Of a stretch of DNA of 64,000 nt, positions 6,718-37,884 are shown one piece after another. The first letter of the stretch is position 1. Every line of letters begins with the position of its first letter. A program made the position numbers and the translations under genes. Below the pieces are notes generated by a model. It had not been told where the DNA came from. It saw nothing but the letters and a program-made list of their open reading frames with translations, and searched no databases. This DNA comes from Candidatus Omnitrophota bacterium (GTDB taxonomy: Bacteria > Omnitrophota > Omnitrophia > Omnitrophales > Aquincolibacteriaceae): assembly GCA_903856085.1 (NCBI GenBank), contig CAIOAT010000016.1, positions 8,581 through 72,580 of the forward strand, read 5' to 3'.

Positions 6718-7474
6718 CAATGTCGAGAAGTGTAAGAAAATCAATAGTGCCGAACGCGCGGTCCACGGCAGGTTCACTGCAGATCCGCGCCCCAAAATTC
6801 AGATAGGCCTTCAGCAAGCGAGGGATCGTCTTTTTTTTCAAGGGATACGGTGCCTCGAGAGGCTCCCCACATTCAAAATCAGGACAAACGCCAAGAAAAA
6901 TCTCCGGATGCAAATAGCCATGGGTGGATAAATAATCAAACGCATGCCAACCCTCACGGGGGTCCTGTTCCGTCAAAGAGGTGCAGCCGAAGAGGTACCG
7001 CTTCCCTTTCATCTCGAGATATTTCACAAGCCCCTTCCACAAGAGGAAAAGAACTTTGACGTTCCGATGCTCCTTTGCAATGCACGCGCGACCGATCTCG
7101 ATCCCGTTCTTCAAGTATGCGTTCGGGAACCTAGTAAAATCGAATTCCGCGGCAGAATAAAAACCAATATTCGCCTGCGCCATTTCGAAGGTTTGAAGAC
7201 GATAGGTCCCGACGGGCACCCCCGTCCTGTTCTCGCAGATAACAAGATGATCGCAATAGCGGTCAAAACCATCCTCGTCCTTACCGGACAAGTGCGACCG
7301 GAGAAGTCCCTCCTGCAGCTCCAGGTTAAAAACCCGATATCTTAAGCGGAGTACAGCATCCAGATCCGGTGAATCCCCTTTGAGAAAACGAATGTGGAAC
7401 CCTTTGTCCGGAGGAGCAGAGACAAGGTCCGAACGGACCTCCTGGCTTGCGCCTTTTTCCTGAACGGCGCTCAT
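6677..7474 (-). CDS. GNAT-type N-acyltransferase of the OlsB/hemolysin-like family (aminolipid synthesis)
   Basis: Blocks LRLRYRVFNLELQEG, FDRYCDHLVI and IGRACIAKEHR are typical of the Acetyltransf_5/OlsB family. ATG 7474 overlaps the PHP gene stop (ATGA). Confidence 0.75.
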   Translation of the reverse strand: MSAVQEKGASQEVRSDLVSAPPDKGFHIRFLKGDSPDLDAVLRLRYRVFNLELQEGLLRSHLSGKDEDGFDRYCDHLVICENRTGVPVGTYRLQTFEMAQANIGFYSAAEFDFTRFPNAYLKNGIEIGRACIAKEHRNVKVLFLLWKGLVKYLEMKGKRYLFGCTSLTEQDPREGWHAFDYLSTHGYLHPEIFLGVCPDFECGEPLEAPYPLKKKTIPRLLKAYLNFGARICSEPAVDRAFGTIDFLTLLDIDDLDEKTFDFFHN

Positions 7475-9231: not shown

Positions 9232-9385
9232 AAATGATTCCTTTCCTGGACTCAAGATCTACCCAGAATCATTATCGACGATCAACATGATGGGAGTGTT
9301 TGGCGGAGGAAAATTCCGTGTAAAATCATTTTGAAACGACGTAATCAGCTCTGGGGAAACAGGTTAAAGAAACCCTGCCGAACGC

Positions 9386-11455: not shown

Positions 11456-11467
11456 AGTTTTGAAACT

Positions 11468-13038: not shown

Positions 13039-14031
13039 CTACTTTTTGGCCGCTTTAAAAACTTCATGGGCCATTTTGGCGGCTCCTAAAATAACCGCAT
13101 TATCCTTCAGTTTGGACGGGACGATTTTCACCACTTTGGCGAGGGGCTTAAGCGCGTAAGCTTCCATCTCACGTCTGACCTCAGGAAGAATGATCTTTCC
13201 CATCGCCTCCATCATTCCTCCTCCCAAGAGGATCAATTCCGGATTCAAAATGTTCACCACATTCGCTAGCGCAACCCCGAGCCACCGGGAACGGCTCCGG
13301 ATCAGCTCCTCTAACGCGATATCCCCCGCTTTGATAGCGCGGGACAAAGCACCGCTGCGGATTTTTTTTACGTTATAACCGATCTCTTCGAGAAGATGCG
13401 GGCACTTCTGCCGCAGCAAGAGGAACCCCGCCTCCGATGCAATAGCATTCCTGCCGACCAAAGCTCCGACTTTTTGGCGCGACGTTTCAAAATCAGAAAA
13501 AGAAGGAAGTGACAGAAATGTCTGGCCGATCTCACCAGCTCCTCCAGAAGCGCCACGGTAAAGATGTCCGTTGATGATGAGCGCCCCGCCGATACCCGTT
13601 CCTAGGAAAACCCCCACGACTTCCCGATAACCCCGCGCTGCGCCGAATTGCTGTTCTCCGAAAAGCCCCGCATTGGCATCGTTTTCAATAAAGACCGGTG
13701 TTTTCAGCTTCGCTTTCAGTTTTTCAGCAAGTGAATAATTCTTAAAAAAAGATACGTTGGAGGAGACTTTGACGATCCCTTTATAGATATCAATGATTCC
13801 AGGACAACCCACACCGATGGTTACAAGATCACTCAGGTCCGACCCGGTTTCTTCCAGAACTTCCTCGATCCCGTCAATGAGCTTGTTGAAAAAGAACCTC
13901 TCGCCGCGATTACCGTCCATCTCAAGTTTGACGGTCTTTTTTAAACTAAATTTCCTGTCAAAAAGACCTATCAGAATCTTGGTCCCGCCCAGATCGATGC
14001 CAAGGATGAACTTCTTTTTCTTGCCCGCCAT
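13039..14031 (-). CDS. ROK-family sugar kinase lacking the zinc CxCGxxGC motif (candidate glucokinase, possibly polyphosphate-dependent)
   Basis: Motifs GIDLGGTKILIG, ENDANAGLFGE and GTGIGGALIING. The only cysteines are in GVGCPG and RQKCPH, so the usual ROK zinc motif is absent. SD GGGGAGAG precedes ATG 14031. The track start at 14061 falls inside the predicted -10. Confidence 0.75.
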   Translation of the reverse strand: MAGKKKKFILGIDLGGTKILIGLFDRKFSLKKTVKLEMDGNRGERFFFNKLIDGIEEVLEETGSDLSDLVTIGVGCPGIIDIYKGIVKVSSNVSFFKNYSLAEKLKAKLKTPVFIENDANAGLFGEQQFGAARGYREVVGVFLGTGIGGALIINGHLYRGASGGAGEIGQTFLSLPSFSDFETSRQKVGALVGRNAIASEAGFLLLRQKCPHLLEEIGYNVKKIRSGALSRAIKAGDIALEELIRSRSRWLGVALANVVNILNPELILLGGGMMEAMGKIILPEVRREMEAYALKPLAKVVKIVPSKLKDNAVILGAAKMAHEVFKAAKK

Positions 14032-14059
14032 AGACTCTCCCCTTTCAAAATTGATTTCC

Positions 14060-14103
14060 ATTATAATGGCTCAGGGAAGTTTTTATGTAAAGCATTTGTA
14101 AAG
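14060..14103 (-). promoter_or_regulatory. Pho-box-like repeat plus consensus -10 for the ROK-ppx-ppk1 operon
   Basis: Top strand has TGTAAAG (14086-14092) and TGTAAAG (14097-14103), exactly 11 bp apart. On the gene strand this reads CTTTACA-AATG-CTTTACA. TATAAT (14065-14060) lies 20 nt downstream, and ATG 14031 follows about 29 nt later. Confidence 0.6.
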
Positions 14104-14279: not shown

Positions 14280-17200
14280 TTATGCCGCTACTTTAACAGC
14301 CTTTGCATTTCTCCAGGAAGCAGCAAGGAACTCTGTGACAAGCATCAAGGCATCTTTCATGCCCCAAAGATCCCGTTTTCTTCCTAGCTCAAAAAGTTGC
14401 CGACTTGTGACAAGATACCAGAGAAGAGAAAAAAGAACCTCCGGGTCAGAGCTCTTCAACTCCTTATCGTAATAAACAAGATTCCCAACGCAACTCTTCA
14501 CCTTTTGGACTTCGCGGCGATCGATTCCGACATAAGCATAATCCAAGCGTTGATATTGAGGTCCGGTGACTAAGGGACGCAGGAATTTCAAAATGGAAGC
14601 ACTAATGCTATCAGATATCTCTACTAGCTGAAAATGTCCGGTAGGAAGCTCCATTTTCTTTATCTTTTGTTCGATTGCCTCTTTCCCGGGAAATCGACTC
14701 CTCTCGAACAGGATAATGACACGGAACGGCAGCCGCGAAAGCAGCAAAAGATGCTCATCGCGAATTCCGATCCTCGCGTCCAGGAAAAGGGTGTTCAAGG
14801 CATTGGCCCGCTGCGGAAGAGCGCGGAACATTCCCATTCCTTTTTGGAAGGCTAAAAAATCGTCCCCTGATAGCGCTAAAAGCTCCTTCAGATCCGGTCC
14901 TGTGCTTTCTGAAAGAAAACTCGCGTCACCCAAAAGAGATTTTAAGCGCGGTAAAAGTTTTACATCCTCCGGTCCTAGGATCCATTCCGTGATCTTGATG
15001 GCAACCAGAAGACGGACTTTCTCCGAAACAACCGGCGTCACGTCTTCTTGCAAGGAAATCTCACGCGTAACCTCTTTGGGATTGAGTTCTAACGCTGGGG
15101 GTTTTTCGGAAGTTCTGTCTTCTCTCAATTCGGAACGCAGCACCCCACCAGGGCCCACAGCAGCCAACGCGGTTGCAATCGCCGAAAAGTGCGTCGTTAG
15201 AATCTTGTAAGTACGCGGCGTAAAGACACCTCGTTTTTCACGCAACATCGTAGAAACATCCTCGGGGGAGAGGGCCACGATCTCAACGGCATCATCTCCC
15301 GGTCTAAATTCTTTCCAATTGAACTCTCCATTGAGCGAAAAATGAAACAACTTTACATCCTCTTTTCTTGTGGTGGGAACTTGCCTTCGCCCCTCATGAT
15401 GAACTTCATAGGAAAGAGGAGGGAGCTCCCGAACTGGTAATGAGGTTAAGGCCGCGGGAAGAGGGCGGCCATCACGGAGTTCTTCAAGGAACCCCCTCTG
15501 GATTGCGGCTTCCGGACTTTCTCCGGGCTCCAGATGCTCAAAAACGGGAAGATCCAATAGACCCGGATTACTGGAAGTTAAATTACTGCGCCGCTGAAAA
15601 ACAACTTTTCCATCCTTGGTCACAAATGCGGCAACCTTTAAGGCCGCCAGACCTCTTGCATGCCCCTGTTTTCTTGGCAAGTGTACGATTTGATCGCCTC
15701 GCGTATCACGAAACATAAAAATCTGCCGATCCGCGAGCAATGAACCTTCCCCCTCCAATCGCTCGACGGCTGTACGGTTCGCCAGCTCCGGAAAAGATAC
15801 CTCGAGGCGCTTCATCCGCTCCAAAATCCCAGCCCGATTGCTCCCAGATATAAAAAAATGATCGGAAGGCGCCGGAACAAAAGCCTCCACTTCAGGAGGC
15901 TTCTGCGCAGTCGCACGAAAGGTCTCCCACAGTTTTTTCCCCATCGTGCTATAAATCTTCGCATATGGATTGGCGGCATCTTGTCCATCCGAAAACGTTT
16001 TTTGATTATGAGCGAGCCTCTGAAGATTAGGCGACACCGAAGTATTCCCTCGAAGCTGAAGATCGAACTCAGCAACCACTCTCGCAAAATCCTCTACGAG
16101 ATCCACCACAAAAGCTCCATATTTTGAGATCAAGCTTTCTGTTTTTTTACGAAATACGTCTATCAATCCTTCCATCTGTTGACGTTCCTCCTCCGTCCTT
16201 GAAACAAGAGCCATGGGCCCTTTGGGAACTGCAAATTGAGGCGTGATCGCATTATCCAATGTCAGACCGGTCCCGAACAAATGCCCATACTGACCTAAGG
16301 CACCTTTCAATTCTTCTGGGCGACGAACCACATGCTCCACATCATGCCTCGGAGAACCGTTACGCCCCAACAACACGGGATGCCGATCTGTTTCAACTTC
16401 TTCCAGAGAAGCAAGCCGTGCGTCAATAACGATCTGACTTCCCTGGTTGTTATAGCTGATCACATTCGAGCTCAGGTCGCCTCCAGGGAAAATGATCTCT
16501 CCATGCTTCACGCCTTGCTCCCTGAAGTCGCCTGCCATCCGCAAAGCTTCGGCAAGATTCATCTTAAAGACCGCCATAGCAACCGCCAAAGGAATACCTG
16601 GCTGCGGGAACCAATAGATCTGTAATTTTTTACCCAACGACTCCGCCAGATCGCGAGCGGCAAAAAATTGTCCGGCATTCCCCGGGAAAAGGCCGTCGGA
16701 TTCCGCTACTTTGAAACGGAAATGTTTCAGAACATGATCCTGCGCTACCATTGTTTCAAAAAAATTCCGATTCTCTCCGTTTTTAGGCGGGAGCAAAATG
16801 ATCACCTCGACGTCCTCCCTCAAATTTTCATCCAAAAGCGCCCGGCTCATCTTTGCCATCATAAGATTTTCTCCGGCGACATCGTCCATCTGGGAAAGGG
16901 CAACTTCCCTCCTGGGTTCTGAGGCCGGTCGTGACATTTCATATTGTTTGTTTCTCATACGTTTCGCGGACGCCCGTAAGGATTGGATCTCACGTTTGAA
17001 AGTCCCGTAACCATTTCCACTAAGATTCCTCAACATCGGCCCCACATGCCTCCAAACTGAGAAAAGGGTCCACAAAACACCAAAGATTGTCGGAACTGTA
17101 ATCAACAACTGGTGCAAACCAAATATAAGGTTCAGGATGGGTACAATAAAAAGAATCGCCACTCCGGCCACCGCCAATGCCCGGCCAAGCCATCGTCCAT

Positions 17201-20200
17201 AAAAATGGTCTAGCTTGTTTCCTTCCAGCTCATCAAGTTCGGCTGTGGGATGGAACGCTTTATGGAGTCCTGCTTTTGCCACGCGCATGGCCTCACGTTC
17301 ATTTTCAAATCCGGATATTCCCAGTTTTTGCATATTGGCCGTCACGCGTCTAAAGCTGTTCAGCGTCACCCACCGATTGATCGCCACCATCAGCGTCACC
17401 CCGAGGCAAAGACGCCATATGGAAAAGGTCCAGAGAACCTTCCGATTGTGCAGGATCTTCTGCCAATCCGAGAACTTCATTCCGTCTTGAAGCAATAACT
17501 TGGGAGGATAAAGATCGATTACCTGGGAAAGGGCAATGAGCCGATTCGACAGATTGAATCCTTCATTAAAATTCTCTGCAAAATCGGCTGATTTTTCAAG
17601 AAACCTCAAAACCTCCTGCTCTTCGATATCATTCCCAGTCCCCCGAGTCGCCTGAAATTGACGGGAAGCCGTCTGAGCGGTCAGGATCGATAAGCGGGCC
17701 AAAATCCCACGGATCTTGACCAGAGAATGCGTGTCGGGTTTCCACATTTCAGAAAGGTCCTCAAAATGTTCCCGGGAAAATCTAAGCAGCGGATGCTGCG
17801 CCAACTCGCTGGCCTTTGTGGTGATCATATCCCTTTCGCCCGAACCCAAGTGCTCATTTTCTAAAAGAAGTCGAGTCCAAGCCTGAAGCGGCTCAACGAT
17901 TTCCTGGAACACCCGCATATCCACGTCATCACCGCGGACCGCTCTTTGTTTATTAGCGTTTCTTTTTAAACGCATCCCGATTTTTCCCGCCTCGTCAAAG
18001 AGAATCTCTAGAGATTCCACGGAATCTCTCCGGAAAAACTTCTCATGCCCTCTTTTTTTCATCAATGCGAAAAAAAGTTTTGGAAGATTCCAGACAAGTA
18101 GAACCAAAGCAAGAACCGGGAAAAAACGCCAACTGATGTAACGAGCCCCAAAAGGGTTCATGAAATACCTCAAGAGAGCCGCTCGCTGCGTGGGATTTTG
18201 TTCTTCCCTTACTAGCTCCAAAAGTCCCAGAACCCCGATCTTTTGTCCGGGATGCATTTGAAATTGTTCCTGAACGGATGCGGGAATCGAATCTATTAAG
18301 CGAAGAGGTGGCGACTTTCTTTCGACAAGATCGCCTTTCTTCTTCGCCCAGGCTGAGGCTTTGGCGGACCCATCGAAAGCAATATCCGCAACACTACCCT
18401 CGCCAAGAATTCCCTCCGTATCGTCGCTGCGGATCACAACTCCCTCCCGTTCACCCAAAAGCCATTGGCTGCTGTTCGCGAGAGGGATCACTGCATACAC
18501 TGTCCCCATCAAAACGCCGCGGGATGTCACGACAGAGACTTTATCTCCTGTTTTAACGCTTCCCGTTTCGACAGGGAGCAGAAAAGGATCCTCATTGGAA
18601 AGACGGCCTGTCCATTCTGCAGAACGGGGGTCAACGCTCGTTCCCAAAAAAACCTCTTTGTTTACAATGCCGGCTTTCGTCACCTGCCCCGCCGCCAACG
18701 TTTGTCCATCTAAAGCAGTAACGCCCAGAACACGACCCCCCACGGGAGCTTTGAGCAGGATGGGCAATCCGCTCCGCTGGATCCCTGCAACGGCCCGCTG
18801 AGCTCTTTTTTCATAGTCCTGGAGAGAGCTTTCGGGAAGAGTCCTAAAGTCCTGGTTCGCCTTACGCATTGTCCGTGCAAGAGTCTCAAGCTGTCTGGCA
18901 ATCTTGAGCTGCCCACCTTGCCCCACAGGGATCCATTCCCCCAAGGAGTCCCCGGCCTTAACCGTTTGTCCATCCCGAACTGTAGCTCGAAAAATTCCGG
19001 CGTCGATCCCGGGAACGGGAGGAACACCGACCGGGATGAACTGTGAAGATGGAATAGTGGTGTGAAATCCGGCATTGTGATGCAATCCTAACGATTCGAC
19101 GCTCGGAGTATTATCTTTTATCAGCTTAATATCATATGCACAACTCGCCCCATGGGCCGGAAGAGATGTGGAAGATGGGAAGCTGAAATGAACTGTTAAA
19201 ATAAATTCGCCGTCCACTCCTTTCGCAAGGTCAAAATGACTTGCTTCCCAATCCAACACATTCACGGAATGCCCATTGACGGAAAGTTCGATATCATCGG
19301 CTCCGGAATATCCCGGAGGAAGAGCAATCTTTATGACCCCCTCATCCAGAGGAACGATCCCCACGGCATAACTACCAGCCGTTGCCGGCCCCTGATCCAG
19401 TGTTTGAACGATTGCCGGGCGGGGCGAAACCAGGATGTCGGCTTCTGCTTCCGCCTTCAGTTGAGCGAGCTCCAGTTGATGTTCGATCCTCTCAAATTGA
19501 TATTGAAATATTGTGTCCCGGTCGAGAGTCCCCGCATCTTTTTCTCCTCTGGCCACCAACCCGCCAAGTTCTCGGATCCTATCTTCCAGAAATTGAGTCC
19601 TGTTATCGCGTTCTGTATCCTCTCCTCTCGCAAGCAGGTCGCCTTTTTTGACAACATCTCCAGGTTTAACGGCATAAGTCATCTTATCTGCCGTCAATGG
19701 GGCTTTGAGCATGACCGCACCGGGAGGATTCACGATTGCTTGTCCTTTGCCTGTATACAAGACAGTTGCTGTGTTTGCGACAGAGTGTTGCTCTTCAAAC
19801 ACTGGTTTGACCTCTGTCCTATCAGAAACAAGGGAGGCTGATGCGACGGAAGACGGCTCTTTCACGGAAGCCTCCTCGTTCGTGACATTCAAAGCATTGG
19901 CAGTCCCGGCTGGGCTTTGAAATGGTATCCCGGAAAAATCTTTCTTCGTGAGTTTCTCCTTTGCGCCTGACGAAGTCATTACCTGTTCTCCTTGAGAAAC
20001 CGCATCGGCCAAGGTTTCGCGCCCATCCACGTTGCCTACACCAAGAATTTCGATGACGGAACTATCCGGAGAGACCGATTGGGGGTTGGATGTCGCATGA
20101 TCGGCTTCAGAAATTTTTGGGCTCTCCGCGGTGGTTGGAAGTGCGGAAGATGGCCCATCCGCAGAAACCCTGTCGGAGAGGACCGATGATGCCGCTGCAA

Positions 20201-23200
20201 CCGGAGAAATATACGCTCTCGATACTTTTGAAGAATGCCCGTTCTCTGGAACGGAAGACGCTCCCTCCAAAGAAACAATTCGGAAATAGCCTTGGTGTTG
20301 GGGCACCACCACGAATGTTGCTTCATAAGGATTCTTGGTTTCCTTGCGTAATGTCCAGATCCCCTTTCTTTCCGTTTTAAGAAATTTCGCACCCTGCAGG
20401 TCTTTTCCTAAAAAAGTCACTGTAGAGGAGGGAACGCCCCGCTGCATTAAAAGCTGCGCTCCTTTCATGTTTTCGGTGATCATTTGTTTGCCCACCAATT
20501 TCTGAATCGCCAATTCATTGGTTTGAGCCAAGGCTGACGAAGCCATGAGAAAAGCCCCCAGCAAAAATCCTCCCATTATTTTTAACAAGAAATGGATTCC
20601 CAGCTTTCGGCGAACTTCTGAACGCTGTGGTGCAATTCCTAGCCCGAAGAAATTTGCCCCGGTGATAACATTCAAAGGTTCTACCCACGTTTCGGATGCG
20701 CGCAGATCTGTAAAACCCTTCGTAGTCCATACTTTTTCGGATACAACTTGAGCATTCAACCAATCTCTTAGTTCGTCCGGGATAGTTTTTGATCCCACCA
20801 GTCTCCACGAGAAAACCTTCCGGGAAAAACCTAAGACGATTTGGATATCAGCAATGGGTGGGGCGTTTTGATTCGTCTTCACGTGAAATAGGGTGCCATT
20901 TATGCCAAGCTTGTGCCCTCGTCTTAAAAATCCCTGCAATTCTGGAGACATCTCCAAAACAATTTTGCCAAGATCAACCCTGTAAACCAACCCCGCAACC
21001 TTTGTCTCTGGCCCAAAAGCTTCAATGTGCTTCGCCGAAAGAGAGGCTGCGCTCCGCATTTCGAATCTTGTCACACCCTTCTTGAAAGACCGATAAGCCT
21101 GCATCAAAAGGCCTGCGGCGATTGCTGACGCTTCCTCTTTTTCTTCAGCCCTTAGCTTTGATTCCCGCGTGTTCAATTCGATATATTCACGAATTCGAAC
21201 GTTAAGTCCAGATAGCGCAGAGGAGGTAAAATTCATCTCGAAAGATTCGATCGCTTTAGCGGCTAGCGCGTAAGGAACCAAGGTATCCGGCAGATCCTTG
21301 GCCTGTCCAAGATCGTTTCTAACCGATTCCAAATCGGCAAAAGTAACCCCGCCATTCCGTTCTTTTCCATAAATGAGTCCCCACGCAAGCGCCCAAGCCG
21401 CCATCGCCTGCTCAGCAGGGATTCGAATGGCCCCCTTAGCCGACGTCATAAGCTCGAGTGACACGGCGAGCATAGACGTCGGGATCATTGCATCCGCATC
21501 ATCCAACAACCCGCCATCGATCAAGCTCACGATCGCATGATGGGCAAGAGCACGCACGGTTCCGCAATCACTGAGATTAAGTTGCAAAAGCACTTCTGCA
21601 CGCTTCAAAGCTTCCCCAAGGATTTCCTTATTCATAACGGGATCAAGATAATTTGAACGCGCCTCCGAACGAACGACGATTTGCGCTTTCACCGATCCCG
21701 GTTCAGAACGGCCAGACGCTGCCTTTTCGCGAGAAAACCGATGGCGAGAGAGTTTCGAATCAACATTGGAACGCCGAAAGGCCTCTGAAATCAAAACACC
21801 CAGATGAATTTTTTTAATCATTTTCAAAGCCACCCAGGAAAAGGCAATATCCCCCGTAAGGATGACGAGCTCTGAAAGGTAGGGGCTTACAAGCTTGTTG
21901 ATAATCATCGCCATCCCCTCAACAGGAAGGAACCATAACAACAATTGACGGCGACTCTCCTTAAAAGATCCGTGGCTTTTGAAGAGTCGTAGAGATTCGA
22001 AGTTATTTTCAGGATAGATGTTTGTATAATATTTCCAGAGCATAAGTGGATAAAAAATATAAAAATTGATCAAAGCATCCCCCATGGTTTTAAGGACGAT
22101 CTCAGACCACACATCAAGCCATGGGGAAAGATTTAATTTCCCGATTAAGGCATAATAAACGGTAAAAAATAAAGCGAACAAGCTAGCTGGAGCTGCGGCT
22201 TTCCTGGAGTCTTTCCAGAATGTTTTCATGAACACTCCTCGAAAGCCATGGCGAAGATAATCCTGCATCCAGACACAATATGCCGCAATCATGCCAGCCC
22301 AGGCGATACTCACGCCAAGTGAAAGAACTAAAGAATGCCATGACGCGTTCTGAAGATGCGGTTTAAGGATAAACGCCAGCCCCAGAGTGGCGGCTGAAAA
22401 TCCAGCTGTCCCCATCGCGGCAGGTGTGATTTGTTTGAGATGAGCGAGTTTGGATCTCTGGTTCCTTATTTCGGACCGGCCGAGCAAGACTTGGGGCAAT
22501 CCCTTTACGTCCCGAGTAAGCACTTGCAGCTCTTTGGCTGCCAATGTGGCCGCCTTGCGAGAGAATAGGATTTGGATCTGATTACTGGGGATCTTTAAAG
22601 CGTCCACAATAAGCCGGTCCTCGGTAACGCCAGCCCCACGAGCCTTTTTCAGATAGCCATCAATCCTTGCATTCTCGGCCTCCGCAATCCGTATCGTCTC
22701 ATTTTCAGCCACAATCGTTTGAAGAAGACCTGCAATCTTCTCTTCGATTTTGTCATGAACTGTCAAGAGCTCGGCTTCCGCTACACGAGTCTCCAGAAGA
22801 GCTATTTCCCGATTGGCTCGCTCAGCGCCCCCGAAAGTCACCTTCCCGCCGAGACCTACGGCCTGCTGATCCTCCGTGCGTTGTTTTGCCTCCGGAACAA
22901 CTCTTGTATTGAACACATCCGGAACTTTTGTCCCATAGGAATCGAAATAGTTGAATCCCTTAAGACCGATCGAGTAACCGTTCTCTCTTGCAGCCAATCT
23001 CGCGGCCGTTGCGGCAGTCAAACGGGCCTCATAAGCCAACGCAAGTTCACGGTTTGCCGGAAGTTTGACGCCTTCTTTGGAGGTTGCTTTAAGACCAAGC
23101 GCTATTCGTTGATCGGTTGTGATCGTCCACCCTTCCGGAAATCGCACATAATTCAAGGCATTGGAAAAAGTCGCACATCCTAAGATGTTTTGGCCATAGA

Positions 23201-25985
23201 GTGTCCTCAAAGGCAATGCCGCCTTCTCCAACTTGGAACGATGCTCATTAAGACGTAAAAGCCACTCCGCCTTAAGATCTCCGATCGCCTGGCGTTTTGC
23301 GGCTGTTGACTGCGAGTTCTTGCCGGCGACTTCGCTAGCATGATCGATCGCCTCAAGGGCTGCTTCAATAATTGGGCCTTGTGATTCAAGCGTTTTCATT
23401 TCGTAGGCGGCCCCCAAGAAATCGAGGTATCGTTCACCCGCCACCTGCTGAAGTTCCAGTCCGGCTGTTTCAACCATCTGCTGCGCCAGTTCTCGCGCCA
23501 GGATATCCTGACCTTTCCAGTATTTGCTAATCTCCGCTGCAAGGGATAACACCGCACTGGCCGCCGAATCCAAACCGATCCCCGTTAATTGTATCTGCCC
23601 AAGATTCGGCAAAGTTCCTTCGACGCCAAGCCCAAGCACCGGTTTCCCATCTGCGAGACCTAGGGTAGGCATGAGAGAAATGCTCCCGGACAAACTTCTT
23701 TTTTTGGATTCCCGGATACTCACCTCAAAACGGTGTCTCAGAATGACCGGATCGCGAGTAACCAATGCTTCAGCCAGGGAGCTTTCATTCACCAGAATCG
23801 GACCGGACAGAGAAATTTCTTTTTGCGGCAAAATGTACTGACGATCCGATTCGATCTGTTGTCTCGCATGGTCACGGCCCAAATTCGCACAACCGCTGAG
23901 AATGCCTGCCATTACAACCCAAAGAACCGCCTTCATGAACGAGGAGGGCTTCCATCGGATCTCGGCGCGCGAGAACAAATTGTTTTTTCCCTGGATCGCG
24001 TCGGGGAGCAATGCCAAAAGTCCCTTCTCCGCCCCGGGAGATAGCAAGGGAGTCGGATCTAAAATGAATCCGACATGGGTATTCATTCTCTGAAATAAGA
24101 AGCTCAAAACGTGTTGCTCTAATGCTTGACGAACTTCATGCATCCCTTTGTAAAATTTCTCCGGAATGGCTGCGAATATCCGTTGTCCCTCCCCATCCAT
24201 GAATGCCGACTTTCCCGTCTGGGATCTTTGGGCCAACACGCTGTGTTCTCCCTCGGAAACATCGACCACCGCCACTTGATGTTTTTTAAGTGATCTTTCG
24301 ATCTGTCCCATAGCCGCTTCAAAATGGTCAAATGCTGGCTCTCCGACCATCTGCCTCGCCTCGGAGTGTTCCATCACGGGGAGCTGCGCGGGAGCGATCG
24401 TAGACGTCCCGGGATACCGCCCCATCAAGAGATCACTATAGGGAAGCATCTTTTCTTCCGGGTTGAAATACGGCGTCACAAGATTGAACGGTATCCCAAG
24501 CGCTTCTGTTCGCCTGAGTAGTCCTTCCTTATGGTAGCCTCCGGCAACAATCACAATGTTTCTGGTTTTATTCCCCTGTCCATTCAAAAAAAGAGGATCT
24601 TGAATCCTTTTTTTGATGATATCAAAAAAAACATCTTCGCGAGCTTCTGCCTGAGCATAAAAATCCAAAACAAGGTCGACAAGGGGCGCTATCGTCTCTT
24701 CGTGAGGGAGTGATGGCTCCCGGAGAAAGCGCTTGTAAGCCTGCACCCAGTTCTTGCGAAAATGGTCGCGAAACCGGGCCACGCACTCCCTTTTAAGTTC
24801 AAGGGAAAGCGCCTGTTTCAGGAGGAAAAAATCCTGGTAAAAGGCAAGCCATCGTCCAGCTACCGGATCACTGCGACGGAGGGTCTCATACAACCTGTTC
24901 TCGAGCGTCTGGATTTCGTCAAAAAGTCTTTCGGCTATAAGTTCGCTTTCAAATACCTGCAAAGCAAGAAACTTCCGAATCATCGGATAACGTCCCCAAG
25001 AAAGCTCCCGTGCCAAAAATTTCTCCATGATGCGTTCCGCCATAACGCGAGAAGTCACGCTTCCAGTCTGAAGTGCGCGTGACCGGAAAGTTGCATTCGA
25101 AGCGGCGCTCTCGAGCCATTCGATTTCCGATCGAGAATCCGGACCAAGCACCCGTTTAAGCTGTCCGATTTCTTTCGTGACTGCGCTACAATCCGGTGCT
25201 GTTTCCGTATTCAAAACACGGAAAAACCGAACTAGCTGAGGCCAATCTTTTTGCGTCGAAAGATCCCGCCAATCGATTCCCAAATGCTTCGAAGAGCAAT
25301 CAAAAAGAAACTTCATGTACTCGCTTAAATCATTTTGGCTTTCCTGATGAGATCTCCACATTTTCAAGAAATGGAATACCTGCGGATCAATAACTTTTTT
25401 GATATCTTGAATTAATGATGCCTCCACCTGATCAAGAAACTCTCGAATCTCACCATGGTTGCGCATAACGGCCCGGTAAGTTTCGAGGTTCTTTCGGTAA
25501 AGCCCTGCCTCCTCAATCCCGTACACGCGTATGCCGGAGTGATTTGCAAAGAATTGAGTGGCGCCATTAACGAATCCCGCTTGGAAAAGGCTTCCCAAAA
25601 AGATCCTGTTCTTTTCATCATCCTGGAAAGGCTTCAGAGCCTCGGGAGACAGAGGGCCTGATGCACCTTCAATAAAAAGCATATCGAGTTTCTTTTGCTC
25701 TAGAAGGGACTCTAGTATCTTCGTAATATTCTTTTGAGCCTCTTCCGAAGCATGCGCATCTTGGATATGGTAGAAACTGAAAGGCACGGACCTTTCCGGG
25801 GGCGGGGACTTTTCAAGGCTTCCTACTTTGGGGGATAAAAAAACGGGGGCTTCGGCAACAGCGCCGGTATAAAAATATGCCGTCACAGCACGCACTTCTT
25901 GGGAAGGAAAAATGGTTTCAAAAACAAAAATGGCCACAACAGCAAATGCTACGATCCGGATCAATTTGCTTTTCTTGGCTTTCAT
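14280..25985 (-). CDS. Giant multi-module envelope protein or polyprotein (3,901 aa from ATG 25985; the frame is open from TTG 26015 = 3,911 aa)
   Basis: A single uninterrupted frame of 11.7 kb. The N-terminus is MKAKKSKLIRIVAFAVVAIFVFETIFPSQEVRA (signal anchor). The modules are listed as separate features below. Confidence 0.8.
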   Translation of the reverse strand: MKAKKSKLIRIVAFAVVAIFVFETIFPSQEVRAVTAYFYTGAVAEAPVFLSPKVGSLEKSPPPERSVPFSFYHIQDAHASEEAQKNITKILESLLEQKKLDMLFIEGASGPLSPEALKPFQDDEKNRIFLGSLFQAGFVNGATQFFANHSGIRVYGIEEAGLYRKNLETYRAVMRNHGEIREFLDQVEASLIQDIKKVIDPQVFHFLKMWRSHQESQNDLSEYMKFLFDCSSKHLGIDWRDLSTQKDWPQLVRFFRVLNTETAPDCSAVTKEIGQLKRVLGPDSRSEIEWLESAASNATFRSRALQTGSVTSRVMAERIMEKFLARELSWGRYPMIRKFLALQVFESELIAERLFDEIQTLENRLYETLRRSDPVAGRWLAFYQDFFLLKQALSLELKRECVARFRDHFRKNWVQAYKRFLREPSLPHEETIAPLVDLVLDFYAQAEAREDVFFDIIKKRIQDPLFLNGQGNKTRNIVIVAGGYHKEGLLRRTEALGIPFNLVTPYFNPEEKMLPYSDLLMGRYPGTSTIAPAQLPVMEHSEARQMVGEPAFDHFEAAMGQIERSLKKHQVAVVDVSEGEHSVLAQRSQTGKSAFMDGEGQRIFAAIPEKFYKGMHEVRQALEQHVLSFLFQRMNTHVGFILDPTPLLSPGAEKGLLALLPDAIQGKNNLFSRAEIRWKPSSFMKAVLWVVMAGILSGCANLGRDHARQQIESDRQYILPQKEISLSGPILVNESSLAEALVTRDPVILRHRFEVSIRESKKRSLSGSISLMPTLGLADGKPVLGLGVEGTLPNLGQIQLTGIGLDSAASAVLSLAAEISKYWKGQDILARELAQQMVETAGLELQQVAGERYLDFLGAAYEMKTLESQGPIIEAALEAIDHASEVAGKNSQSTAAKRQAIGDLKAEWLLRLNEHRSKLEKAALPLRTLYGQNILGCATFSNALNYVRFPEGWTITTDQRIALGLKATSKEGVKLPANRELALAYEARLTAATAARLAARENGYSIGLKGFNYFDSYGTKVPDVFNTRVVPEAKQRTEDQQAVGLGGKVTFGGAERANREIALLETRVAEAELLTVHDKIEEKIAGLLQTIVAENETIRIAEAENARIDGYLKKARGAGVTEDRLIVDALKIPSNQIQILFSRKAATLAAKELQVLTRDVKGLPQVLLGRSEIRNQRSKLAHLKQITPAAMGTAGFSAATLGLAFILKPHLQNASWHSLVLSLGVSIAWAGMIAAYCVWMQDYLRHGFRGVFMKTFWKDSRKAAAPASLFALFFTVYYALIGKLNLSPWLDVWSEIVLKTMGDALINFYIFYPLMLWKYYTNIYPENNFESLRLFKSHGSFKESRRQLLLWFLPVEGMAMIINKLVSPYLSELVILTGDIAFSWVALKMIKKIHLGVLISEAFRRSNVDSKLSRHRFSREKAASGRSEPGSVKAQIVVRSEARSNYLDPVMNKEILGEALKRAEVLLQLNLSDCGTVRALAHHAIVSLIDGGLLDDADAMIPTSMLAVSLELMTSAKGAIRIPAEQAMAAWALAWGLIYGKERNGGVTFADLESVRNDLGQAKDLPDTLVPYALAAKAIESFEMNFTSSALSGLNVRIREYIELNTRESKLRAEEKEEASAIAAGLLMQAYRSFKKGVTRFEMRSAASLSAKHIEAFGPETKVAGLVYRVDLGKIVLEMSPELQGFLRRGHKLGINGTLFHVKTNQNAPPIADIQIVLGFSRKVFSWRLVGSKTIPDELRDWLNAQVVSEKVWTTKGFTDLRASETWVEPLNVITGANFFGLGIAPQRSEVRRKLGIHFLLKIMGGFLLGAFLMASSALAQTNELAIQKLVGKQMITENMKGAQLLMQRGVPSSTVTFLGKDLQGAKFLKTERKGIWTLRKETKNPYEATFVVVPQHQGYFRIVSLEGASSVPENGHSSKVSRAYISPVAAASSVLSDRVSADGPSSALPTTAESPKISEADHATSNPQSVSPDSSVIEILGVGNVDGRETLADAVSQGEQVMTSSGAKEKLTKKDFSGIPFQSPAGTANALNVTNEEASVKEPSSVASASLVSDRTEVKPVFEEQHSVANTATVLYTGKGQAIVNPPGAVMLKAPLTADKMTYAVKPGDVVKKGDLLARGEDTERDNRTQFLEDRIRELGGLVARGEKDAGTLDRDTIFQYQFERIEHQLELAQLKAEAEADILVSPRPAIVQTLDQGPATAGSYAVGIVPLDEGVIKIALPPGYSGADDIELSVNGHSVNVLDWEASHFDLAKGVDGEFILTVHFSFPSSTSLPAHGASCAYDIKLIKDNTPSVESLGLHHNAGFHTTIPSSQFIPVGVPPVPGIDAGIFRATVRDGQTVKAGDSLGEWIPVGQGGQLKIARQLETLARTMRKANQDFRTLPESSLQDYEKRAQRAVAGIQRSGLPILLKAPVGGRVLGVTALDGQTLAAGQVTKAGIVNKEVFLGTSVDPRSAEWTGRLSNEDPFLLPVETGSVKTGDKVSVVTSRGVLMGTVYAVIPLANSSQWLLGEREGVVIRSDDTEGILGEGSVADIAFDGSAKASAWAKKKGDLVERKSPPLRLIDSIPASVQEQFQMHPGQKIGVLGLLELVREEQNPTQRAALLRYFMNPFGARYISWRFFPVLALVLLVWNLPKLFFALMKKRGHEKFFRRDSVESLEILFDEAGKIGMRLKRNANKQRAVRGDDVDMRVFQEIVEPLQAWTRLLLENEHLGSGERDMITTKASELAQHPLLRFSREHFEDLSEMWKPDTHSLVKIRGILARLSILTAQTASRQFQATRGTGNDIEEQEVLRFLEKSADFAENFNEGFNLSNRLIALSQVIDLYPPKLLLQDGMKFSDWQKILHNRKVLWTFSIWRLCLGVTLMVAINRWVTLNSFRRVTANMQKLGISGFENEREAMRVAKAGLHKAFHPTAELDELEGNKLDHFYGRWLGRALAVAGVAILFIVPILNLIFGLHQLLITVPTIFGVLWTLFSVWRHVGPMLRNLSGNGYGTFKREIQSLRASAKRMRNKQYEMSRPASEPRREVALSQMDDVAGENLMMAKMSRALLDENLREDVEVIILLPPKNGENRNFFETMVAQDHVLKHFRFKVAESDGLFPGNAGQFFAARDLAESLGKKLQIYWFPQPGIPLAVAMAVFKMNLAEALRMAGDFREQGVKHGEIIFPGGDLSSNVISYNNQGSQIVIDARLASLEEVETDRHPVLLGRNGSPRHDVEHVVRRPEELKGALGQYGHLFGTGLTLDNAITPQFAVPKGPMALVSRTEEERQQMEGLIDVFRKKTESLISKYGAFVVDLVEDFARVVAEFDLQLRGNTSVSPNLQRLAHNQKTFSDGQDAANPYAKIYSTMGKKLWETFRATAQKPPEVEAFVPAPSDHFFISGSNRAGILERMKRLEVSFPELANRTAVERLEGEGSLLADRQIFMFRDTRGDQIVHLPRKQGHARGLAALKVAAFVTKDGKVVFQRRSNLTSSNPGLLDLPVFEHLEPGESPEAAIQRGFLEELRDGRPLPAALTSLPVRELPPLSYEVHHEGRRQVPTTRKEDVKLFHFSLNGEFNWKEFRPGDDAVEIVALSPEDVSTMLREKRGVFTPRTYKILTTHFSAIATALAAVGPGGVLRSELREDRTSEKPPALELNPKEVTREISLQEDVTPVVSEKVRLLVAIKITEWILGPEDVKLLPRLKSLLGDASFLSESTGPDLKELLALSGDDFLAFQKGMGMFRALPQRANALNTLFLDARIGIRDEHLLLLSRLPFRVIILFERSRFPGKEAIEQKIKKMELPTGHFQLVEISDSISASILKFLRPLVTGPQYQRLDYAYVGIDRREVQKVKSCVGNLVYYDKELKSSDPEVLFSLLWYLVTSRQLFELGRKRDLWGMKDALMLVTEFLAASWRNAKAVKVAA
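15156..15665 (-). other. Giant ORF Nudix-hydrolase module (aa ~3451-3620) with a variant Nudix box
   Basis: LKVAAFVTKDGKVVFQRR...LDLPVFEHLEPGESPEAAIQRGFLEELR fits GX5EX7REUXEEXGU, except that RE is replaced by RG. The box is at nt 15477-15554. Confidence 0.6.
18336..19763 (-). other. Giant ORF module E (aa ~2085-2560): HlyD/membrane-fusion-protein-like periplasmic adaptor segments
   Basis: Lipoyl-like hairpin motifs YAVKPGDVVKKGDLLARGE and ATVRDGQTVKAGDSLGEW. Coiled-coil stretch FERIEHQLELAQLKAEAEA. Beta-barrel-like segments LKAPVGGRVLGVTALDGQTLAAGQ and VKTGDKVSVVTSRGVLMGTVYAVIP. Confidence 0.5.
19791..20213 (-). other. Ser/Pro/Ala-rich low-complexity linker (aa ~1935-2075)
   Basis: Sequence SPVAAASSVLSDRVSADGPSSALPTTAESPKISEADHATSNPQSVSPDSS...EPSSVASASLVS. 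Confidence 0.6.
20526..20609 (-). other. Internal Sec-type signal peptide (aa 1803-1830: RKLGIHFLLKIMGGFLLGAFLMASSALA|QT)
   Basis: A basic n-region, a hydrophobic core and an A-L-A cleavage motif, starting immediately after RSEVR. Confidence 0.55.
21672..22463 (-). other. Giant ORF module C (aa 1185-1448): roughly six-helix integral membrane module, unknown family
   Basis: Hydrophobic stretches occur near aa 1201-1217, 1226-1249, 1275-1293, 1305-1327, 1356-1376 and 1381-1400. The module is bounded by RSEIR and RSEAR. Confidence 0.5.
22479..23888 (-). other. Giant ORF module B (aa 710-1179): TolC/OEP-like outer-membrane factor
   Basis: About 470 aa, the typical OMF size, with a two-fold internal organisation. 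N-terminal block SLAEALVTRDPVILRHRFEVSIRE...MPTLGL; second half LALAYEARLTAATAARLAARENGYSIGLKG. Long Ala/Glu/Leu-rich helices are present, and a lipobox precedes it as in NodT-type OMFs. Confidence 0.5.
23889..23936 (-). other. Internal lipoprotein-type signal peptide with lipobox (aa 694-709: MKAVLWVVMAGILSG|C)
   Basis: A hydrophobic core is followed by I-L-S-G-C, which matches the L-[AS]-[GA]-C lipobox. The Cys709 codon (tgt) is at 23889-23891. The signal starts 7 residues after RAEIR. Confidence 0.6.
24456..25784 (-). other. Giant ORF module A (aa ~78-520): candidate Tiki/TraB/ChaN-superfamily fold
   Basis: FYHIQDAHASEEAQKNITKILESLLEQKKLDMLFIEGASG resembles the GExH...H...E pattern. The late block RNIVIVAGGYHKEGLLRRTEALGIPF resembles the G..H block of ChaN/TraB proteins. 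This is pattern memory only. Confidence 0.35.
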
Positions 25986-26096
25986 TTTTTGCCCTTTTCC
26001 AATGGTGGAAGACAACTCTTTAAGGTTTTATAAAAGTTTTTCCTTCTGATCTCACGGAAAGCTTAACTTCGTTGTGAAAACTCTGCATCACATCCC

Positions 26097-26114
26097 GGTA
26101 AAGATAATGTAAAA
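26097..26114 (-). promoter_or_regulatory. Pho-box-like repeat 85-130 nt upstream of the giant ORF start
   Basis: Top strand has GGTAAAG (26097-26103) and TGTAAAA (26108-26114), 11 bp apart. On the gene strand this reads TTTTACA-TTAT-CTTTACC. No convincing -10 was found at the expected distance. Confidence 0.4.
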
Positions 26115-26283
26115 ACAATATTTCCGGGGGGTTAGGACCTTTTATCGTTTGATAGCTTTTGCTATCCCCCGGGAAATCCTTAACGACGAAATGCTCGAAC
26201 AGGAATCTGGGGCGCAAAGTCTGAATCTCTCTATTTGCTCTTCACTGTGCTTTTGAAATGCTCGCAGCAAGGCACATCTCTCC

Positions 26284-26337
26284 ATTTCAAAAATTTCTTG
26301 GAAACCTTCCTTTCAGAAGTGTAAAGAGTTGGTAAAG
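26284..26337 (-). promoter_or_regulatory. Pho-box-like repeat plus candidate -10 in the giant-ORF/phoB divergent region
   Basis: Top strand has TGTAAAG (26320-26326) and GGTAAAG (26331-26337), 11 bp apart. A weaker in-phase site, GTTTCCA, is at 26305-26299. A 9-nt gap follows, then TGAAAT (26289-26284) on the minus strand. The repeat is also about 100 nt upstream of phoB. Confidence 0.45.
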
Positions 26338-26390
26338 CTTCTATCTGTTACGCTGAAACAGGTTATGTCCGATTTGAAACTCCTCCGATT

Positions 26391-26419
26391 TTTCAACCTG
26401 TAACGAACTGTGGTACAAT
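26391..26419 (+). promoter_or_regulatory. Candidate sigma70-type promoter of phoB
   Basis: TTTCAA (26391-26396), a 17-nt spacer, then TACAAT (26414-26419). SD GGAG is at 26431-26434 and ATG at 26440. Confidence 0.4.
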
Positions 26420-26439
26420 GAACTAACTTTGGAGTTCAT

Positions 26440-27129
26440 ATGGCAAGCGAAACGATTCTCCTCATTGAAGACGAAAAGAACATCCTTGAGCTTGTGAAAT
26501 ACAACCTCGAGCAGGAGGGTTTTCGCGTCCTCACCGCGACCAAAGGCAACGCAGGTCTTGAGACAGCGCTTAAAGAAAAACCAGCCCTTGTGCTCCTCGA
26601 CCTCATGCTCCCGGAAATCAATGGCCTCGAGATTTGCAAAACCCTAAAACAGACCGAAAAAACACGCAGGATCCCTATCATCATGCTTACGGCCAAAGGC
26701 ACCGAGTCCGATAAAGTCGTCGGCCTCGAACTCGGCGCCGATGATTACATCACCAAACCTTTCAGCCCCCGGGAACTCGTAGCTCGCATCAAAGCCGTCC
26801 TTAGACGCTCTCAGGAAAAAGCCCCGGAAGAGATCTTGAGATCCGGAACGATCGAGCTTGACGTGACAAAGCATGAGCTGCGATTAAAAGGAAAGCCCGC
26901 CGAAATTACCGCCAAAGAATTCGAACTCTTGCGCGTACTCATGAGTTCCAAGGAACGGGTCCTGACGCGCGAGGTTCTCTTATCAAAAGTTTGGGGTTAT
27001 GAGAATTCTGTGAATATCGAAACGCGGACTGTCGACATGCACGTCGGACAGCTACGAAAAAAACTTGGCAAAGAAGCGGATCGGATCGTCACGGTTAAAA
27101 GCGTCGGCTACCGTTTCGACGGAGAATAA
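26440..27129 (+). CDS. phoB: OmpR/PhoB-family response regulator (phosphate regulon regulator)
   Basis: Receiver domain (ILLIEDEKNILELV, LVLLDLMLPE, MLTAKG) plus a winged-helix C-terminus (TRTVDMHVGQLRKKL, VKSVGYRF). It is adjacent to a PhoR-like kinase and to the pst/ppk genes. Confidence 0.8.
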   Translation: MASETILLIEDEKNILELVKYNLEQEGFRVLTATKGNAGLETALKEKPALVLLDLMLPEINGLEICKTLKQTEKTRRIPIIMLTAKGTESDKVVGLELGADDYITKPFSPRELVARIKAVLRRSQEKAPEEILRSGTIELDVTKHELRLKGKPAEITAKEFELLRVLMSSKERVLTREVLLSKVWGYENSVNIETRTVDMHVGQLRKKLGKEADRIVTVKSVGYRFDGE

Positions 27130-36663: not shown

Positions 36664-37884
36664 TTACCCCTTCATTTCCAAAGCCTTATACTTATGCCAA
36701 ATAGCTTTTTCTTTGCGCTCGGAAAGAACGGTTTTCTCAAAACCCAAGTCAGGAAACCATTCCTTGCCGAAAGCTGAATAATACTCAAAGAGCCTCTGCT
36801 TCACCCACTCATCACTTCGATGTGTTATTCCCAGCTTAACTTCCAGATCACGATATAAAAAATAAGCTGCGAGCATATTGGCGTATTCATTCCAATGGCC
36901 TTCATGTTGGAATCTCAAACGGGACGGGGGAAAAAGGTGGGAACCGCTAAAGAGTTTGTAAAGATTAAGAGAGTCGATCCCCTCAGGGATTAAAGACTCG
37001 TCCTTCCCTTCGGTATGAAAAGGAAGAAGAACAACAGAAAATCGAGCGTTCTGAGCAGCCGCCCGCTTCGACCATGCCTGAAGTATCGTTTGATAGACTT
37101 TGATGGTCTGATCAACTTCAGGGGAAGGTTTTCCTGATAAATGATCGTTTTGAAAACGCTTGACCGCTGACGAATGGCGCTCTTTGTGAAAATGTTTTTT
37201 GGGCTGCAGATTAAGCCAAGAAACGAATTTTGTTTTGGCGTCTAAAAATAAGTAGGTTATGTAAAACCTAGAAACGACTCTGTTCCAAAAGGAAGAACCT
37301 TTCTTTTTTCGGGGAAAAATTAAGTGTCCCTCTCTATCCACGGAAATCAGCTTGTTTTCATAAATATTCATAAGATCATTGTCGCAATAAACATAAAACA
37401 CAAACTGCAGACCCCTGGCCACGGGCCGCTCAAGAAAGGACAAATAGGCATCATCCGTTCCATAACCATTCATCCCAAAATTAATTACTTCAAACTTGTC
37501 TTTGTTACTGTTAAGCAAATAATCGAGAACATTCACAAAGCCGTATTCGATGCTCAAGCCCGTATTTTCCACGAAAGAATCCCCGAAGAAACCGATGCGG
37601 AGCCGGCGAGCACTGGACGCCCGATCAACATCCCAACTCTGTCGCAAACCGAGATTATTATAAACCGCTAAATGCTGCTTCCCTGTATCCGGATGCTTTC
37701 GAAGAGAGCGGGTATTGGGAACCCGCTTAAGAAAATCCTCACGCGTTAATCTAGACTCAGCAGCTTCCTGGTATTTTGGAAGAAAGATTCTAAGACCTAT
37801 CTCTGCGATCATCAGCGAAATGAATACCGCGCCCAATACCAAAAGACCCTTTTGGATAAATTCTTTTGTATTTTGTTTCAGCAT
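36664..37884 (-). CDS. SGNH/GDSL-family hydrolase or acyltransferase with N-terminal membrane anchor
   Basis: N-terminal TM helix LLVLGAVFISLMIAEIGL, GDS block IGFFGDSFVENTG and a late block HEGHWNEYANML. It is adjacent to an MBOAT remnant, an AlgI/AlgJ-like pairing. Confidence 0.6.
   Translation of the reverse strand: MLKQNTKEFIQKGLLVLGAVFISLMIAEIGLRIFLPKYQEAAESRLTREDFLKRVPNTRSLRKHPDTGKQHLAVYNNLGLRQSWDVDRASSARRLRIGFFGDSFVENTGLSIEYGFVNVLDYLLNSNKDKFEVINFGMNGYGTDDAYLSFLERPVARGLQFVFYVYCDNDLMNIYENKLISVDREGHLIFPRKKKGSSFWNRVVSRFYITYLFLDAKTKFVSWLNLQPKKHFHKERHSSAVKRFQNDHLSGKPSPEVDQTIKVYQTILQAWSKRAAAQNARFSVVLLPFHTEGKDESLIPEGIDSLNLYKLFSGSHLFPPSRLRFQHEGHWNEYANMLAAYFLYRDLEVKLGITHRSDEWVKQRLFEYYSAFGKEWFPDLGFEKTVLSERKEKAIWHKYKALEMKG

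Follow-up and report, generated by a model that had tools for sequence, protein, structure and literature searches.

The core of a PhoP-activated promoter consists of four repeats on the coding strand at about −60 to −20, with no −35 element (PMC11870197). The PhoP rule of Bacillus subtilis is four TT(A/T/C)ACA repeats with an 11-bp period, and the published Pho box of Streptococcus pneumoniae PnpR is TTTACACAATCTTTACA (PMC4913102, PMC11870197). In Salmonella, PhoP promoters of "architecture V" (ugtL, pagK, pgtE, mgtC, pagC, pipD) have an activating box in reverse orientation 30–58 nt upstream of the −10 element, with 37, 47, and 48 nt among the cases (Zwir et al. 2012, PMC3335776). We analyzed a 64,000-nt stretch of DNA (the window) from a Candidatus Omnitrophota bacterium, in which two boxes lie in the 454 nt between the ATG of a giant open reading frame (ORF) at 25985 and the ATG of phoB at 26440. 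We propose that this region holds two divergent promoters with one PhoB site each. The box proximal to the giant ORF would form a Pho promoter for that gene, and the distal box would serve phoBR. We give this explanation as a whole a probability of about 0.6.

Pattern and matrix scans placed the proximal box (half-sites 1 and 2, TTTTACA-TTAT-CTTTACC) at 26097–26114 and the distal box (CTTTACC-AACT-CTTTACA, near-consensus, two half-sites only) at 26320–26337, both on the minus strand and at exactly the coordinates given in a preliminary description of the window. Both consist of CTTTACA-type direct repeats with 11-bp spacing and are oriented toward the giant ORF, as stated there. The degenerate pattern KGTAAAR-N4-KGTAAAR, searched with at most one mismatch across the 64-kb window, gave six matches vs. 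0.22 expected (∼27-fold enrichment), a number that none of 100 shuffles reached. All six matches of the pattern were on the plus strand, which for this pattern means that the boxes point along the minus-strand genes. We also scanned both strands with a weight matrix built from 23 boxes of other genomes only. The five best scores in the window came from the distal box (24.2), the boxes upstream of the ROK kinase gene (19.9) and the porin gene (19.1), the proximal box (18.6), and the pstS box (18.0); in shuffles of the window, the mean best score was 13.9 and the mean count above 14 was 0.53. The boxes upstream of pstS, the porin gene, and ROK-ppx-ppk1 all point in the direction of their genes. 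A box-like site at 36946–36963 scored 13.9, the same as the mean best of the shuffles, is located inside an ORF, and was taken as a chance match.

The window motif equals the S. pneumoniae PnpR box and fits the B. subtilis rule, and the S. pneumoniae box is nearly identical to those of two related loci (L001 and L009). The likeness extends to the kinase: next to phoB (26440–27129, plus strand; Pfam and NCBIfam) is a phoR/pnpS-like histidine kinase gene (ending at 28903, plus strand; Pfam and NCBIfam) whose product matches PnpS NF046044 with 413 bits, above the cutoff of 400. Because of the enrichment, the matrix ranking, the match to the published motifs, and the kinase passing the PnpS cutoff, we accept both boxes as putative Pho boxes of the Firmicutes type. 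They also resemble the E. coli PhoB site, which has 18 bp with two 7-bp direct repeats and a 4-bp spacer and replaces the −35 element ∼10 nt upstream of the −10 element (PMC4913102). The half-site itself is different, CTGTCAT in E. coli vs. CTTTACA here.

Orthologs of the giant protein that match at both the N- and C-termini (28–73% identity in the N-terminal part) were found in metagenomes and in metagenome-assembled genomes of Candidatus Omnitrophota. DNA was available for 14 loci: the window and loci L001, L003, L004, L006, L008–L011, L013, and L028–L031 from 13 related genomes. The contigs of P0004 and P0201, for which gene tables only were used, bring the synteny count to 16. The longest form of the giant ORF has 3,911 codons (14280–26015, minus strand). 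Its start is most likely the ATG at 25985 (14280–25985, minus strand, 3,901 amino acids [aa]; ORF list and ortholog comparison), because this start is kept in the orthologs, is preceded by a Shine-Dalgarno-like AAGGG, and gives a protein identical to the database protein P0001. Measured from phoB to the TTG of the longest form, the intergenic region is 424 bp, the length reported in the preliminary description.

The proximal box is present in all 14 loci with constant orientation. Where the start codon of the giant ORF is secure (13 loci), the box ends 92–111 nt before it (111 nt in the window); in L028, where the start is uncertain, this interval is 147 nt. Alignment anchored on this box revealed two further half-sites on the minus strand in the 11-bp register: a weak third one, TGTGATG (26086–26092), with partly conserved columns, and a fourth, GTTTTCA (26075–26081), which ends 9 nt before the predicted −10 hexamer and is kept as GnTTTCA, AATTACA, or GTTACG in nearly all loci. 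The predicted −10 hexamer of the giant ORF is TAAGCT (26060–26065, minus strand). With spacers anchored on the proximal box, a TAnnnT hexamer begins exactly +49 nt from the start of the box in 14/14 loci, as TAAGCT, TAGTCT, TAGACT, TAAACT, TACACT, TAATAT, or TAGGAT. When 11 non-redundant loci are compared, the columns without variation are the cores of the half-sites and T1, A2, and T6 of the hexamer; the mean identity of the 31-nt stretch between box and hexamer is 47%. No −35-like hexamer was found 17 nt upstream of the −10 element in the window, where the sequence is ATGCAG. The hexamer lies 56–74 nt from the start codon in the 13 loci whose start is secure and 110 nt from it in L028 (start uncertain).

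If the hexamer occupies −12 to −7, the four repeats (26114–26075) span about −61 to −22. The proximal site therefore has the anatomy of a PhoP-activated promoter core, with four in-phase repeats, a −10 element ∼10 nt after them, and no −35 element; its start site is a prediction. The half-site TT(A/T/C)ACA, the 11-bp period, the four repeats on the coding strand, and the lack of a −35 element are shared with B. subtilis PhoP, S. pneumoniae PnpR, and Lacticaseibacillus PhoP promoters. Half-sites 1 and 2 are strong, the third is weak, and the fourth is good, which resembles the strong-strong-weak-strong order in the pstS Pho box of Lacticaseibacillus paracasei (PMC11870197). We suggest that the giant ORF promoter is activator-dependent, of the Bacillus PhoP/Streptococcus PnpR type, and that its four TTTACA-like half-sites replace the −35 element. 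Under phosphate limitation, phosphorylated PhoB bound at 26114–26075 would recruit RNA polymerase. Transcription would start at G26053/A26052, as judged from the position of the −10 hexamer, and give a 5′ untranslated region (UTR) of ∼68 nt (25986–26053, minus strand). In our view, it is highly probable that the proximal box places the giant ORF under direct Pho control, and likely that transcription starts near 26053 and not, as previously suggested, near 26277.

Within the predicted 5′ UTR there is a conserved A/T-rich element, GGAAAAACTTTTATAAAAC (26043–26025, minus strand). It is a near-palindrome, AAAAACTTTTATAAAAC, or AAAAGTTTTTAGAAAG in other clades, ∼35–55 nt upstream of the giant start codon, and a near-palindrome occurs at the same position in L001, L003, L008–L011, and L029–L031. 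It may act as a translation enhancer or bind a second regulator.

The phoB and kinase genes are on the plus strand and divergent from the giant ORF, an arrangement found in 16/16 orthologous loci with upstream context. The neighboring phoB products are 75–92% identical, and the contexts of two phoB orthologs (P0201 and P0199) both also contain a giant ORF. Several of the orthologous loci have ROK-ppx-ppk1 after the giant ORF. Among the loci examined, paralogous giants, which share the N-terminal module only, had no phoB neighbor. With a matrix made from the window boxes, each orthologous phoB-giant spacer contained a box with a score of 16 or more, and the same matrix found no box above 16.1 in 295 kb of paralog loci. 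The link of the giant ORF to phoBR is, by these comparisons, conserved and specific. The preliminary description had asked whether orthologous giant ORFs also neighbor phoBR; they do so throughout, and the paralogs do not.

Membership of the giant ORF in a predicted Pho regulon together with the pst, porin, and polyphosphate genes is strongly supported, because both the synteny and a promoter of canonical form are conserved. Since pstS, the porin gene, and ROK-ppx-ppk1 carry the same box, they would be induced together with the giant ORF. This much of the earlier proposal is borne out. Its general claim that the giant ORF is wired into the Pho regulon stands on the proximal box (14/14 loci) and the synteny (16/16); the route through two boxes and a ∼290-nt leader is not supported.

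At the other end of the region, a promoter scan predicted a phoB promoter at 26390–26419 (plus strand) with a −35-like TTTTCA, an 18-nt spacer, and an extended −10 element, TGgTACAAT (26411–26419); transcription from it would start at about 26426. The extended −10 motif TGnTAnnAT is kept in 14/14 loci. The distal box is present in 13 of the 14; L001 has a single box that holds both registers, being 47 nt from the phoB −10 element and +49 from the giant −10 element. Relative to phoB, the orientation is reverse in all 14 loci. The distance from the box to the phoB −10 element is 47 nt in six loci, 48 nt in one, and 37 nt in three, and it is 75–76 nt in the four loci of the window clade, which comprises the window and the three loci most closely related to it. 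The mean identity of the 47-nt spacer is 52%, and the phoB leader is between 9 and 25 nt long, depending on the locus.

As in E. coli, the regulator's own operon would belong to the regulon (PMC4913102). The E. coli phoB box is direct and located at −35, whereas the box on the phoB side is reversed here and lies 37–76 nt upstream of the −10 element. Architecture V of Salmonella is similar in arrangement: in 10/14 loci, 37, 47, or 48 nt separate the distal box from the phoB −10 element. The differences from architecture V are the 75–76 nt of the window clade, the regulator and the signal, and the second box that architecture V has near or downstream of the −10 element; no such second box was seen at phoB here. 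We suggest that phoBR has a self-sufficient extended −10 promoter with the reverse distal box upstream at a clade-fixed distance. The distal box most likely serves phoBR and would mediate its autoregulation; that it acts mainly on phoB is slightly favored over the other roles discussed below. It had been noted earlier that the Pho control of the giant ORF would fail if the boxes acted only on phoB. This appears to be true of the distal box and not of the proximal one.

In L003, L009, L011, and L013, an inverted repeat, GGAAAAAG-N8-10-CTTTTTCC, is located between the distal box and the phoB −10 element and overlaps the phoB −35 region. It is possibly an operator for a dimeric regulator.

The stretch between the two boxes was examined as a candidate regulatory leader. 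Its length ranges from 0 to 223 nt across loci, with start-to-start distances between the boxes of 67, 74–75, 82, 85–86, 139, 184, and 216–223 nt, and no helical phasing between the two boxes was found across loci. A search of Rfam with 25800–26600 on both strands gave no match at E ≤ 1. RNA folding of the inter-box stretch was no better than that of shuffles in the window, L004, L006, and L028 (z = −0.43 to +0.32), and a GC-rich hairpin at 26120–26177 is specific to the window. The 65-codon TTG-initiated ORF of the preliminary description is present and is crossed by the proximal box as described; neither this ORF nor a 47-codon ATG-initiated ORF in the window is conserved in L004 or L006, and a small leader protein was rejected. 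With no conserved length, sequence, or structure and no RNA family match, the inter-box stretch does not look like a regulatory long 5′ leader.

A patch that is conserved within the window clade, ATAGCAAAAnCTAnCAA...CTAACCC, lies at 26120–26185 (minus strand) in the window and in the aligned parts of L004, L006, and L028. Within the patch upstream of the proximal box, GATAGCAAAAGCTATC forms a perfect palindrome in the window. The conserved inter-box patches could be sites for another DNA-binding factor.

Three other explanations of the two boxes were considered. The preliminary description had the distal box followed by an in-phase weaker site and, after 9 nt, by TGAAAT (26284–26289, minus strand), with a start near 26277. 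The distal box would then be a second Pho-dependent promoter of the giant ORF, with a ∼290-nt leader running through the proximal box, either as one of two tandem promoters or as a regulatory leader. The distal box is indeed oriented toward the giant ORF in 13/13 loci and is the best-scoring box of the window (24.2), and TTTCCA, 9 nt, and TGAAAT follow it there in roughly the right geometry; the window clade also keeps some patches of sequence between the boxes. However, TGAAAT has G and not A at position 2 and is 1 nt off the +49 register kept in all 14 proximal promoters. The equivalent hexamers are not −10-like in L004 (TTGGAA at +48 and TGGAAA at +49 from the distal box), in L006 (TTGAGG and TGAGGA), or in any of the ten short-spacer loci, and TGAAAT was rejected as a −10 element. 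L028 has TGAATA at +48 and, alone among the relatives, a TAnnnT-like GAATAT at +49. In the alignment anchored on the distal box, no column downstream of it is conserved; toward the giant ORF, conservation is limited to its two half-sites and extends neither to a third or fourth half-site nor to a −10 element. Between loci, the boxes are anywhere from 67 to 223 nt apart, and L001 does without the second box. In the short-spacer loci, a start ∼25–35 nt after the distal box would leave only ∼15–45 nt (∼85 nt in L013) before the proximal box is reached. As described above, the RNA between the boxes has no Rfam match, no conserved ORF, and unremarkable folding. The comparative data place the promoter directly after the proximal box, at TAAGCT (26065–26060), and we consider a second promoter at the distal box unlikely, although a weak clade-specific upstream promoter may exist there.

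It is about as improbable that the distal box is chiefly an upstream auxiliary site of the giant promoter, assisting PhoB recruitment or cooperativity as in Salmonella PhoP architectures II and IV, and that its distance to phoB reflects tight packing. PhoP promoters with two boxes, the upstream one modulatory, are documented (PMC3335776), the two boxes share their orientation in every locus, and the predicted affinity of the distal box is higher than that of the proximal box. Between the two boxes, the spacing varies and shows no helical phasing, whereas the spacing to the phoB −10 element is exact within 1 nt per clade despite the 52% identity of the spacer and the varying phoB leader, and L001 manages with a single box. 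The distal box may still have an auxiliary role at the giant ORF promoter. That the boxes are not PhoB sites at all, being chance −35-like TTTACA sequences or sites of a different regulator of the OmpR family (a KdpE-like one, for instance), so that the giant ORF is not phosphate-regulated, seems very improbable. TTTACA is one mismatch from the −35 consensus, the regulator falls under the trusted PhoB cutoff, and KdpE is also reported to bind TTTACA-type direct repeats (PMC3264566). Tandem 11-bp repeats are nevertheless ∼27-fold enriched and occur only upstream of pstS, the porin gene, the polyphosphate genes, and the giant ORF; their positions are kept in orthologs across ∼30–90% protein divergence; the nearest half-site of the giant promoter is 9 nt from the −10 element, which is not a −35 position; and the adjacent two-component system is PhoB/PnpS-like.

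Several points weigh against our preferred reading, a proximal Pho promoter for the giant ORF and a distal box for phoBR. The 14 loci are related by descent and form three clades with ∼11 non-redundant sequences, so that counts such as 14/14 overstate independence. The best family of the regulator is PhoB TIGR02154 (NCBIfam) with 265 bits, under the cutoff of 296. The 75–76 nt of the window clade are outside the Salmonella range of 30–58 nt and differ in phase from the 37/47 class by ∼3 bp, which makes the tie of the distal box to phoB weakest in the very clade to which the window belongs. GAATAT in L028 has to be counted here as well, as do two inter-box patches conserved in the window clade, AATGGAGA and ATAGCAAAAnCTAnCAA...CTAACCC, the latter immediately before the proximal box. 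Every promoter element given here is a prediction, in a lineage that is uncultured. From sequence comparison we infer that PhoB binds, that it activates and does not repress, where transcription starts, and what sign the effect of the distal box on phoB has.

The three other Pho boxes of the window are all on the minus strand and were found by the same pattern and matrix scans. The porin box CCTTACAATTTCTTTACA (3693–3710) belongs to a promoter with four half-sites, 9 nt, and TATACT, a geometry identical to that of the giant ORF promoter. The pstS box GTTTACAGGAATTTTACA (1977–1994) is followed by 21 nt and TAAACT, and the box of the ROK-ppx-ppk1 operon, CTTTACAAATGCTTTACA (14086–14103), by 20 nt and TATAAT. 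The latter is located downstream of the giant ORF and is kept in L001, L003, L004, L006, and L013, as is a box at the PHP gene. The phosphate cluster on the minus strand has the order pstC, pstS, Porin_5 porin, PPK2, acyltransferase, GNAT-type acyltransferase, PHP-domain protein, PPK1, Ppx, ROK kinase, and giant ORF.

Some side observations concern these genes. The box upstream of the PHP gene is weak in the window (TTTTACA-CGGA-ATTTTCC, 9308–9325, minus strand), and better ones occur at the PHP gene position in L001 (20593) and L003 (27752). In the same cluster as the PHP-domain gene are olsA/olsB-like acyltransferase genes (5902–7480, minus strand), which point to phosphorus-free ornithine lipid. 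The longest-ORF starts of pstS (ATG 1966) and ROK (ATG 14061) fall inside their own predicted promoters (1922–1966 and 14020–14061, minus strand), and ROK ATG 14061 overlaps TATAAT. The true starts are probably downstream ATGs after AAGGAG (∼1924) for pstS and after GGGGAG for ROK. In one relative (L050, contig PLLJ01000047.1), a second giant ORF of 3,276 aa (8609–12672, minus strand) is directly downstream of phoR and convergent with it, so that phoBR there has giant genes on both flanks.

To our knowledge, neither the function nor the regulation of the giant proteins of Omnitrophota is known, and these organisms are not genetically tractable. The protein encoded here resembles the published giants (West-Roberts et al. 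2023, 10.1101/2023.11.21.568195; 2026 preprint, 10.64898/2026.06.07.730766) in belonging to the same phylum and in being very long, membrane-anchored, and multi-domain, with enzyme domains including NUDIX. With 3.9 thousand aa, it is at the small end of their range, and its family is defined by an N-terminal module of ∼450 aa. A text search of the two preprints found no mention of PhoB or polyphosphate, and in the 2023 preprint none of the word "promoter" either.

The giant protein consists of an N-terminal signal anchor, the shared module, an internal lipobox with a TolC-like module, membrane modules, an HlyD-like stretch, and a NUDIX domain. The N-terminal module (aa ∼70–525; window 24411–25775, minus strand) is common to >70 giant proteins of 2,200–6,500 aa from Omnitrophota, Elusimicrobia, and Auribacterota (including loci L014–L027 and L032–L047) and contains the motifs F-Y-H-I-Q-D-A-H and A-G-G-Y-H-K-E-G. 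It had no Pfam match and no match to PDB sequences, and the first 1,200 aa likewise had no match to PDB sequences. The giants that share this module otherwise carry unrelated enzyme domains, among them PTS EI/HPr, glycogen phosphorylase, phosphoglucomutase, kinases, and helicases.

An outer-membrane channel-like module inside a 3,901-aa ORF is unusual. The module at aa 673–1169 (window 22479–23969, minus strand) has a lipobox, LSGC (predicted lipobox cysteine at residue 699), that is invariant in the orthologs. Its match to Pfam OEP (E = 5e-4, 20.3 bits) is below the cutoff of 22. A poor AF2 model of it (pLDDT 47) was compared with PDB structures by Foldseek; the 37 best matches of this low-confidence model were all of the TolC, OprM, or CusC family, with E down to 1.5e-6 and TM of 0.3–0.45. 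HlyD-like biotin-lipoyl signatures are found in a later module, and the NUDIX domain is in the C-terminal part. The motif R-[SA]-E-[IVLAM]-R occurs five times in the giant protein, at residues 673, 1170, 1439, 1788, and 3617, and two to five times per ortholog vs. ∼0.05 expected by composition. Several copies have, within the next 10–30 residues, either an internal lipobox (…AGILSGC) or a signal peptide of the Sec type (…SSALA|QT, with the ALA|QT site near residue 1822), which suggests that they mark the borders of polyprotein modules. The label "envelope polyprotein" used in the preliminary description is a reasonable one in view of these modules; the processing part of it is a prediction.

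A bolder and rather doubtful extension is that the giant ORF is a true polyprotein from which signal peptidases release modules at the R-[SA]-E-[IVLAM]-R borders, each of these being followed by an internal lipoprotein or Sec-type signal peptide, to give a trans-envelope machine deployed only under phosphate starvation. If true, the released modules would include a TolC-like lipoprotein, an HlyD-like adaptor, membrane modules, and NUDIX among other parts. Such a machine might serve, for example, to take phosphorus compounds out of another cell, be it host or prey, and the cluster of phoBR, giant, and polyphosphate genes would be a phosphate-starvation "attack or scavenging" module.

The promoter class proposed here is already well known; the phylum is new for it and the target gene is unusual. 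Compared with the Firmicutes systems, the host is a diderm of the Omnitrophota, binding and induction are predicted from the DNA, the target is a multi-module envelope protein of 3,901 aa and not a transporter or phosphatase, and the region is shared with divergent phoBR. The Firmicutes-type Pho box would thereby be extended to a distant diderm phylum. The mechanism suggested earlier for this locus is corrected to a short leader and one box per promoter. One conserved family of giant envelope proteins always adjoins phoBR and polyphosphate genes behind a textbook, predicted Pho promoter, which would place the physiological context of these giant proteins in phosphate limitation.

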